DNA of 64,000 nt, from the NCBI RefSeq assembly GCF_963921235.1, contig NC_086108.1:68512001-68576000 (forward strand), in the 5' to 3' direction. Both the position numbers and the translations under genes were made by a program. The DNA comes from Mobula hypostoma (taxonomy: Eukaryota). Of this stretch, positions 1,334 to 4,555 are shown piece after piece (the first letter of the stretch is position 1; the number at the start of each line of letters is the position of its first letter). The notes beneath the pieces were generated by a model, which was given only the letters and a program-made list of their open reading frames with translations, did no database searches and was not told the DNA's origin.

Positions 1334-2228
1334 TTTCAGTTTTTTTTAAAAAATGCTGCACATGTTTCTTTGGAAGGGGAAATATACATGCGAGTTTAAA
1401 AAAAAGGCAGAAAATGGACAAAATTCAAGGGTTCATGAACAGTACTGGGTGATAATGAAATTGAATTTGTGAAAAGCAGAAATGGCTGGATACATCGGAA
1501 AGATAAACACGTTCGATTGCACAACAGATAACTGGATGATGTATACTGAGCAAATAGAGCAATATTTTGAAGAAAATAAAATAGCCAATGAGAAACCAGT
1601 GCCAGTTTTGAATAGGTGGAAAAGCATGCAGTTTGTTTAGTTTTGTCTGCTCCAACCAAACCATCCAAAATGACCTTTACTAATATTTTGAATATAATGC
1701 AGAAGCATTTAGAACCAAAACCACTGTTAGATTTCATAAGTGGAATCAAAATGAAGGGAAGTCCATTACTACTTATATGGCTGACTTGAAGAAGTTATCT
1801 GAGCATTGTCTGTTCAGTGATGGGATTAATGATGCACTGAGAGATCTTTTAGTTTGTGGAATCTTACAAGAAAGCATTCAAAAAAGTCTCCTAACAGAAG
1901 CACAACTCACATTTAAAAGAGCAATTGACATCTCTGCATCAGCAGCTAGAGACACAAGTGATTTGCAGTCTGGAATGAAAGTGAGTGAGAACAAAATTGC
2001 TGTATCTAGATAGAGACCTGCCTGGCCCAACAAATTGTGTTACCATTGTGGTAGTGTCTCACATACACCAGACCAATGCAGGTTCAAAGGCAAAACTTGC
2101 AGAAAATACAACAAAGTAGGACACATACAAAGAACATGTTGCAAAGAAAAGTATAAATGGACTCCACAGAGAAGAAAAATAATAGTAACAGCAAGAGAAA
2201 GAAGAGTAATCCGGTAAATGTGAATGAC

Positions 2229-2861
2229 ATGGAGAGGGAGAATGAGGTACATTTGGTGGTGGACAGGGAATGCAGCAGTGGGCTACAGGCTGACACTGAG
2301 CCCAAGCAGAAAGGTCAGAGCTGGCAGGGGCAACAGGACTCACAGCTCGATAACTTGCCTACCTCCACTATCACTTGCAATGCGGACAAGGGGGTGTTCA
2401 TGGATGCCATGTACCAGGATGACTTTGAGACAGTCAGGGTCTATGACAAGAATGTAATGTTTAACTTTACCAACCACATTGCTGCAACAGAGGCCATAGC
2501 TGGGTTTAATGGGAAGAAAATTAAGCTGTACATTGCTCAGATCCAGATCAAAGTTTTCAGTAAAGGTATCCCACACCCGGCTCCACCCCATCCAGTTCCT
2601 CATTTCCACACCAGCATCTCCACATGTTGGATAGAAGCAAGGAGATGATGCCATTCCTGGAATAACCTACGACCATGTAATTTCCAGGCTGGGACCAGGG
2701 CAGAAATATGAATTGCATGCGGGTGCTGATACAACGCACAGTGTTGTTGTTCATGTCTGCGGAAGTGACCCAGAACTGGAAGAGAAAGAGGGGAAGAACA
2801 AACCCAAACCAAAAATCATCAAACGATATGTCCAGACTATACTGCCAGTCATTTGAAGTGA
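2229..2861 (+). pseudogene. RCAN1: Processed pseudogene of a regulator of calcineurin (RCAN/DSCR1/calcipressin), most similar to RCAN1
   Basis: Translation across two frameshifts: MERENE...LDNLPTSTITCNADKGVFMDAMYQDDFETVRVYDKNVMF-NFTN...FNGKKIKLYIAQ...HPAPP / [76 protein letters not shown] / PDYTASHLK*. This matches the RCAN FLISPPASPP, LGPGEKYELH, PSVVVH and PKPKIIQTRRPEYT motifs. No introns; TAG at 2632-2634. Paralogue assignment is less certain than the family. Confidence 0.92.
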
Positions 2862-3278
2862 AATTGTACTTATCCACTTCTTTCCAATAGGATTTCTCAT
2901 ACAGTCAATGACCACACTGATTGCACTACTACTAATGAGGGTACTGGACTGCAGTATAACTTGTGGAAAAGACAAAATTCCAAAATCCATAACTGTGCAT
3001 GTGCTGATAGGCAGAAATAATGTGGCATAGTTGTTTGGTATCAATGATTTAGTGTTATTTTCTGCTGTAACTGTGTACTTTAAACTGCAAAGGTATTAAA
3101 TGGGGACAGCTAGATCAGTTGAATAAGCAGCAGCAGTAATGGCACACATTACAATGTAGAGCAAGTGGTTCACAATGATTTTTTGTTGTTGCTTATCTTA
3201 TCATGGTGTCTCCCATCTTCTTGCTGATATACTTTATTTGCATATTGTTGAAAAATTATAGTTATTTATGGTGTTTAG
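2862..3278 (+). other. Probable 3' UTR of the captured RCAN mRNA, no poly(A) tail
   Basis: AT-rich non-TE-looking sequence between the RCAN stop codon and resumption of integrase sequence at ~3279. Confidence 0.65.
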
Positions 3279-4555
3279 AGTAGCCAGAAGTGTTCCCAAT
3301 AGCCTCAAGCAATGCCCACTGTTAATGTATTGAGAAGGACTGGTGTTCCAGATATTTGTCATTCAAGAAAAGGAATGGAATAAGACACATTACTGATCGA
3401 GCACCTTGCCAAGCATTGTTTGGGATGCCAACACATCCAGAAGATGCCAAGAGCAGTGCCTCTCCATCCCTGTGAATGGCCTACATTGCCCTGGCAGAGG
3501 ATTCATGTGGATCTTGCTGAACCATTCATGGGCACAAATTTCTTGGTAGTATTGGATGCAGCTACAAAGTGGCCAGAAGTGTTCCCAATAGCCTCCACTA
3601 CACCATGCTCACTGTTGATATGTTCAGAAGCTTTTTCTCAAAGACTGGTATTCCAGAACACTCAGTCAGTGACAATAGACCAGAGTTTGTTGTAGAACGG
3701 TTTCAGTCATTCCTGAAAATGAATGGAATAAGACATATTGCATCTGCACCGTTCAACCCAGCTACAAATCGCTTAGTGGAAAGGTTTGTGCAGAGTCTAA
3801 AGAATGCACTGTAAGCAATGTCAGCAGAACACACTACACTGACACTGAATCAGAAGCTCGCCTATTTCCTCCTTGCATATCGCAATGCAGCACACTCCAC
3901 AAACAACAACTCACCAGTTATTCTGTTCCTGGGTTGTTTCTTGTGCTCACGCTTGGATCTCCTCAAACACAATCTCAGAAGGAGTATACAGGACAAACAG
4001 CTGAGACAAACTAAGGGCTCCTCAAACAAGGAGGTTCGATGTTTCACTCCTGGACAAGCAGTCCAGGCGAGGGACTACAGAGGTGATCAAAAGTGGGTGC
4101 TTGGAAACATTAAGGACAGAACTAGACCACTCTCCTACACAATGGAGATTGTGACTGATGTCATCTGGAGACAACACATCGATCAGCTGAGGACAGCAGA
4201 GTCAATTGATAGAGGAGAAAGATATTAGAGCTGTCACAACCACTTCCTGCGGTCCCAGAGACAACTCCTACAACCACCATGGAGGAGACCCAGGACCTGA
4301 GATTGTTTCACAGCCAGGGGTCTCACCGGCAAAGCAGAGTGATCCCCTTGTCAGGAAAGACGTTATCCCACAAAAGCAAAAAAATCCCCACGGCAATTAA
4401 ATCTTTAGGCCTGAACAGGACAATTTAAAACTTACTATGCTGTGGATGTCTATATAGTAGTTGCACATATAAGGTGACTACAGAGCAATATGTTACATAT
4501 GTGAGTCTGAAATGCATTCTATATTGAGTTGGAGTTATAGCTAAGCTGAGAGGAG

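Follow-up and report, generated by a model that had tools for sequence, protein, structure and literature searches.

How does an intron-free RCAN coding sequence come to lie between the gag and integrase regions of a Gypsy LTR retrotransposon in the ray Mobula hypostoma? We analysed a stretch of 64,000 nucleotides (contig NC_086108.1, positions 68,512,001 to 68,576,000; hereafter the window) together with relatives of the element elsewhere in the genome. The locus holds a single dead, intron-free RCAN1 copy within a two-LTR Gypsy element, where it replaces protease (PR), reverse transcriptase (RT) and RNase H (RH); most likely it arose by template switching during reverse transcription. In window positions, the features are:

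1–1329, plus strand: 3′ part of a LINE-like insertion that splits the Gypsy leader (homology to repeats in the window)
1330–2179, plus strand: Gypsy leader and decayed gag (72–81% identical to 20 family copies; translation)
2038–2139, plus strand: two zinc knuckles in gag, the second with a C>Y change
2168–2179, plus strand: 5′ switch point, a purine tract common to gag and the parent 5′UTR, right before the parent ATG
2182–2861, plus strand: RCAN1-like coding sequence (CDS), complete, intronless and dead (exon matches; Pfam PF04847)
2862–3285, plus strand: first ~420 nt of the parent 3′UTR, internally cut (58 differences at 374 sites)
3281–3285, plus strand: 3′ switch point, TGGCC common to parent UTR and integrase (TAGCC in the window copy)
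3286–3393, plus strand: duplicate of the integrase core, with deletions (matches family copy L047; self-match within the window)
3394–4555, plus strand: decayed integrase (rve, E = 9.6e-8), 3′ tail and polypurine tract (…GAGAGGAG)
4556–4794, plus strand: 3′ LTR, TG…CA (alignment to family copies and to the 5′ LTR)
4795–4799, plus strand: right target-site duplication (TSD) TAAAG, against TTAAG on the left (4 of 5 positions)
58000–61946, minus strand: sister copy with PR-RT-RH-IN (IN, integrase) but without gag, with its own insertion of ~1.1 kb at ~59967–61049

The first-pass annotation had read gag knuckles, intronless RCAN, UTR, integrase, polypurine tract and LTR in this order on one strand, and the order is present in the sequence. 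A search of the own genome with leader and gag (window 1900–2230) gave 3,630 candidate matches at first pass; the 20 family copies used for comparison were fetched by gag similarity and represent 20 of the 40 scored hits among these candidates. The gag-side and integrase-side flanks of the RCAN insert match the same family copies. Window 3392–4795 is 76.8% identical to family copy L047, and window 3521–3811 matches the Pfam integrase domain rve. Family copies show the Ty3/Gypsy order gag-PR-RT-RH-IN, with RVT_1 followed by RT_RNaseH in L054 and L055 and integrase thereafter. In 7 of the 20 copies, one of them doubtful, a protease-like D[TS]G motif lies ahead of RT, and no Pfam protease match was obtained in the family copies searched. 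Compared with the near-collinear copy L055, about 2.2 kb of Gypsy is absent at the insert (L055 2785–4977), a segment that contains Pfam RVT_1 and RNase H matches. The proposal that PR-RT-RH is missing relative to the sister copy stands as regards this loss and as regards kinship, the sister being of the same family (78.5% over 973 nt) with an RNase H match, but the sister lacks gag and is interrupted by its own insertion. Inside that insertion, window 60447–61061 matches Pfam ALKBH8_N (E = 5.5e-21), a domain that we take to be derived from the tail of LINE RT.

The RCAN identity proposed earlier is borne out both by Pfam, with Calcipressin (PF04847) matching window 2635–2853 (E = 2.8e-7), and by an exon-by-exon match: window 2182–3285 is a spliced copy of a host calcipressin-1-like (RCAN1-like) gene on contig C18. 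Searching the genome with window 2200–3300 yielded seven matches (six of six candidates scored), namely the window, five pieces of the C18 gene and one 90-nt piece on contig C40. Four exons (228, 174, 172 and 176 nt) make up the C18 gene. Its introns begin with GT and end with AG, and it encodes 249 amino acids without stops, 247 of them identical to the Mobula birostris protein named calcipressin-1-like at NCBI. The insert matches the four separate exons at 72%, 91/70%, 79% and 81%. All three introns (~91.6 kb, 2.2 kb and 1.4 kb) are absent from the window copy, in which the exon joins at ~2417/2418, 2540/2541 and 2698/2699 are continuous, as the reading of an intronless CDS had it. A Pfam family search found three RCAN genes in the genome, on C2, C18 and C76; only C18 gives long DNA matches to the insert, C2 and C76 giving at most 65–82 nt at 70–75%. 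Judged by these matches, the RCAN1-like C18 gene qualifies as the parent, the closest of the three paralogues. On C76, the FLISPP exon of the RCAN paralogue also occurs as an inverted duplicate with the same translation, ~61 kb away (G000:C76, 29.25 and 29.31 Mb), and PWI-domain exons lie ~100 kb beyond the duplicate.

Both ends of the insert could be placed against the parent. The CDS start had been put at 2229 and the end of gag at ~2217. Gag homology stops at 2179 and the CDS begins at ~2182, at the parent's first ATG and 19 codons earlier, because family copies match up to 2175–2188 and then stay Gypsy while the window enters the parent 5′UTR and its first ATG. The UTR-like DNA of ~420 nt noted previously is the first ~420 nt of the parent 3′UTR. 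The copy ends 414 nt past the stop codon, and the parent's first AATAAA lies at 1121, ~700 nt further. The longest A-run between 3200 and 3420 is 5, with no poly(A) tail at the 3′ end of the copy; the reported absence of poly(A) and of an inner TSD thus agrees with a 3′ end internal to the UTR and with microhomology junctions at both ends. The copy had been called dead, and we see all the lesions: a stop (TAG) at 2632, three deletions that break the frame (10, 8 and 1 nt), and FLISTPASPH. Of 139 residues invariant in eight proteins, 35 are altered. Exon 1 of the copy has 18 nt (window 2295–2312) with no counterpart in the parent. As the RCAN proteins of shark and skate are longer around this region, the retrocopy may here keep an ancestral state.

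We then examined the junctions. Across the 12 nt of the 5′ switch point, all 20 family copies agree with the parent at 7–10 positions, 11 of them at 9 of 12 (P(≥9/12) = 6e-4 for random pairs). At the 3′ switch point, TGGCC is present in 9 of the 11 matching copies; for random pairs, an exact overlap of at least 5 has P = 0.006. These P values are optimistic, since the 5′ tract is rich in purines and we placed the junction so as to fit. Window 3279–3393, formerly taken for the start of integrase, instead duplicates the integrase core, with deletions, before the sequence jumps back by ~330 nt. It corresponds to L047 6282–6345, then 6420–6453, then 6122 in the zinc-finger region, with ATC common at the jump, and window 3279–3337 matches window 3568–3630. 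The scrambled duplicate suggests extra template jumps. Such jumps are expected of template switching as described in the part of PMC5131818 used here, and a single deletion does not explain the duplicate.

The 5′ LTR lies outside the window; a self-search of the window found none inside. It is located 3.1–3.3 kb upstream (G000:C50:68,508,710-68,508,929; L058:6610-6829), behind the nested LINE, starts with AG rather than TG, and is 79% identical to the 3′ LTR (match L058:6625-6813). A PBS-like site starting with TGG, TGGTGGCAATGAGG, follows it, and then the first part of the leader. The leader halves that flank the LINE-like insertion adjoin in copies L050 (1820|1836) and L053. This insertion extends ~3 kb upstream of the window and has an RVT_1 match (E = 1.5e-9) on L058:8912-9457, from which we infer that it is of the LINE class; it is later than the Gypsy element. 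Within it, window 267–1175 is an insert of ~0.9 kb, with three short tandem units at 428–510. The whole element is bounded by TTAAG and TAAAG, which agree at 4 of 5 positions. In the family, a 5-bp TSD gives the highest mean match, 0.48 as against 0.38 for 4 bp and 0.26 for 6 bp, with 5/5 in two copies and 4/5 in three; this survey is noisy, both ends being available in 18 of 40 copies with several boundaries wrong. As the LTR-pair identity equals that between copies, the pairing of the LTRs rests on the TSD and on leader continuity. About 4.3 kb farther upstream than the 5′ LTR, at L058:2260-2522, lies another family-type LTR. We rejected it as the 5′ partner: the 3′ LTR of the chimera matched only the copy at 6625, from which the leader also continues. 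The element is old, with copies ~20–25% apart, and its microhomologies and TSD are accordingly eroded.

Pairwise NG86 dN/dS between the RCAN copy and its parent was 0.35 (0.22–0.55) over 189 codons and 0.28 (0.16–0.49) over exons 2–4. Against the cut-off of 0.5 used in PMC5131818, in the part of that paper drawn on, these pairwise values alone would pass. The apparent constraint vanishes once site classes are set against neutral yardsticks. From codon 55 on, the copy differs from the parent at 26 of 266 non-CpG 0-fold sites (0.10, one branch) and at 14 of 62 non-CpG 4-fold sites (0.23, two branches); the LTR pair shows 47 differences in 220 (0.21, two branches) and the Gypsy part 123 in 1486 against the column yardstick (0.08, one branch). 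The neutral distance therefore comes to ~0.1 for one branch and ~0.2 for two, the same as at replacement and silent sites, which argues for neutral decay. A date from the epaulette shark rate (7e-10 per generation; PMC10587355, seen in part) was discarded, as it would put the event more than 1e8 generations ago, which is implausibly old. On these distances, capture and insertion are of equal age within error, and the RCAN copy looks to have decayed neutrally. With a stop, three frameshifts and 0-fold divergence at the neutral one-branch value, it fails as a functional retrogene, and its sequence carries no sign of function.

Retroviral gag-onc transduction joins a sense-oriented host coding sequence in phase to gag. 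The RCAN1 CDS is likewise in sense orientation and in phase with gag, but env is absent and nothing points to selection or spread. Gag and the parent ATG are in phase where they join (chance one in three), and 11 of 20 copies have no net indel between knuckle and junction. Of nine deletions in the CDS, six have lengths divisible by three (P = 0.025 versus 35 of 117 in Gypsy copies), although P is 0.26 among those of at least 3 nt and 0.057 if two adjacent ones are merged. The in-phase join, the taking of a complete CDS, the deletion bias and a dN/dS of 0.28–0.35 leave some room for a brief functional phase. A full-length Gag-RCAN1 fusion of gag-onc type, expressed from the LTR, briefly selected in ancestral rays and then dead, nevertheless seems improbable.

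We compared the locus at 85% with sequencing runs from four other organisms and studies (X5, X9, X10 and X11; 4 of 24 listed), all of which carry it. An X5 contig spans 2112–3446 with 30 differences and no gaps; X9 contigs (2091–2918 and 2943–3424) and X10 contigs (2097–2968 and 3068–3341) cross both junctions, and X11 crosses the 3′ junction. X5 has the same frame-breaking deletions (0 gap letters), and X9 has those of 10 and 8 nt (3 gap letters). Contigs of X5, X10 and X11 also cross the boundary between LTR and flank, which makes the insertion orthologous. No empty or pre-capture site was seen among these four.

Intron loss, an internal 3′ end, microhomology at both ends, two LTRs, an outer TSD and the agreement in age between capture and insertion all support the earlier proposal that a Gypsy element captured a spliced host RCAN mRNA by template switching. 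The PBS-like site with its continuous leader, the chimera in four other organisms and an RBM25 chimera from the same Gypsy family (below) also favour it. Weighing against it are the erosion of microhomologies and TSD, the AG at the start of the 5′ LTR, an LTR pairing that depends on TSD and leader, and the lack of any empty or pre-capture site in the four organisms. Minus-strand synthesis would have copied the 3′ LTR, polypurine tract and integrase, slipped back into the integrase core with part of it skipped, and jumped at TGGCC onto a co-packaged RCAN1 mRNA within its 3′UTR. The mRNA would have been copied across three exon joins to the start codon, followed by a jump at the purine tract back onto gag and completion of synthesis. 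The product would then have been integrated by the enzymes of an intact relative, giving the 5-bp TSD; neutral decay and the LINE insertion in the leader would have followed, with no detectable progeny. Co-packaging, the order of jumps and integration in trans are steps that we infer.

The best-surviving alternative is that a LINE-made RCAN1 processed pseudogene entered a resident Gypsy at the end of gag, and that one later deletion from UTR to integrase removed poly(A), inner TSD and PR-RT-RH. LINE-like RT elements are abundant in the region, large deletions are frequent in family copies, and a second spliced RCAN1 fragment of 90 nt lies among LINE-like pieces on C40. Deletions can leave microhomology, and microhomology-mediated ones would leave junctions similar to ours, which weakens the template-switch reading. 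Against this, the pseudogene would have had to insert soon after Gypsy integration, the ages being equal, and in sense orientation. Its 5′ end would also call for a 12-nt microhomology, and the integrase duplicate, which jumps backwards, for a rearrangement of its own. Wherever contigs of the other organisms cover the junctions, these are identical, and the copy has none of the hallmarks of LINE processing (poly(A), flanking TSD, intact 3′ end). We regard this alternative as unlikely. The C40 fragment (L005:1501-1591; G000:C40:118807791-118807881) covers the exon 3/4 join and sits between LINE-like pieces that seemingly face opposite ways; by eye, it resembles templated DNA inserted at a LINE 5′ inversion. 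We rejected it as progeny of the chimera, to which it is about equally close as to the parent: among 91 sites, it shares 6 private ones with the parent and 4 with the chimera.

A second alternative keeps the same jumps but has the chimeric Gypsy-RCAN1 cDNA recombine into a resident element, with no fresh integration. The final structure would be identical, so the junctions cannot discriminate, yet capture age equals LTR age, which is simplest with one event; we consider recombination quite improbable compared with template switching followed by integration.

The same Gypsy family has made another capture. Three of the 20 family copies have in common a non-Gypsy insert that matches RBM25 (best match 72%, E = 2.4e-31) and in which at least six exons of the gene (C1:99.81–99.83 Mb) are spliced together. 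A PWI match on C2 was rejected as not being RBM25. Among 30 RBM25 loci, 28 have the family's gag/protease upstream (27 ending at L054 3212–3272), and the other two have its polypurine tract/LTR downstream. Examples of the subfamily are L044:3209-4045 (G000:C36:31909208-31910044), L057 and L046, with loci L078–L107; one RBM25-carrying copy is found ~62 kb before the start of the window (C50:68,449,777). Both chimeras have the same gag and LTR, with spliced host exons replacing pol enzymes. They differ in that the RBM25 junction lies past the protease motif, that integrase is also lost and that there are 2,906 candidate copies in the genome as against one RCAN1 chimera. Several family copies (L042:4629-4769, L043), and all four other organisms, have an integrase deletion that joins window-equivalent 3444 to ~4227, which suggests a further non-autonomous subfamily. 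For Sds3, 150 of 331 candidates genome-wide were scored and yielded at least 119 matches; 6 of the 12 loci L108–L119 lie near a gag that is only 66–73% similar, and which is therefore probably of another Gypsy family.

The spread of the RBM25 chimera shows that a non-autonomous derivative of this family can multiply, and the first-pass annotation had suggested as much for the RCAN chimera. Our counts are lower bounds, although every candidate was scored, but they gave a single copy each time, with 6 of 6 candidates scored for the chimera as query, 4 of 4 for parent exon 4/UTR and 16 of 16 for the Pfam family. The four other organisms have 1–2 contigs per place over the RCAN part versus up to at least 128 on the Gypsy parts. 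Spread as a non-autonomous family is thus very improbable. An assembly artefact, conceivable in so repeat-rich a region, is refuted by the unbroken X5 contig and by the separate X9 and X10 contigs over both junctions, so that the junctions are real, as first claimed.

Gene capture of this kind has been described. Tan et al. 2016 (Genome Res, PMC5131818), in the part of the paper available to us, report LTR-mediated retrocopies in zebrafish (5/7), chicken (4/10), mouse and human, with a template-switch model and cases of more than two switches. Their retrocopies resemble ours in that spliced mRNA replaces internal ORFs of the LTR element, with microsimilarity at both ends, 3′ truncation, no poly(A), both LTRs and multiple switches. 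Read against the filters of that study, the RCAN1 chimera is intronless, has the same LTR element on both sides with a gap above 20 bp, shows no L1 hallmarks, and has microsimilarity at the switches and both LTRs with an outer TSD. It differs in being from a cartilaginous fish, in holding the whole CDS from the start codon, in its scrambled integrase, in having no secondary copies and in its age, which at ~0.1 substitutions per site is far above that of most cases in their study. Host mRNA within an LTR element is also known, per the same source, from HERV-K/FAM8A1, an untranscribed processed pseudogene with microsimilarity, and from maize Bs1; the RCAN1 host element is a Gypsy and not an ERV, and Bs1 has three parent genes rather than one. 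Vertebrate RCAN1-3 have one alternative first exon and three common exons, with FLISPP and PxIxIT motifs (PMC3896409, seen in part). The window copy has the same exon plan but is dead, with FLISTP and HSVVVH.

The words shark, cartilaginous and RCAN are absent from the main text of PMC5131818 as available, the accessible part of PMC3896409 makes no mention of an RCAN retrocopy, and VGP Phase I (PMC13320880), in the part at hand, counts retrocopies by lineage with no split by mechanism. In an incomplete literature search, neither an RCAN retrocopy nor a shark or ray case of LTR capture came up. The RCAN1 chimera is a clean, single-copy, decayed instance of an already described gene capture. New are the 5′ LTR upstream behind the LINE, the outer TSD (4/5), the microhomology at both junctions and the scrambled integrase duplicate. 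The locus extends LTR-mediated gene capture to cartilaginous fishes with its full anatomy of LTRs, TSD, switch points and extra jumps, and is usable as an insertion marker common to several related species. Two captures by one Gypsy family, RBM25 in thousands and RCAN1 as a single copy, bear on what a non-autonomous LTR element must retain to spread.
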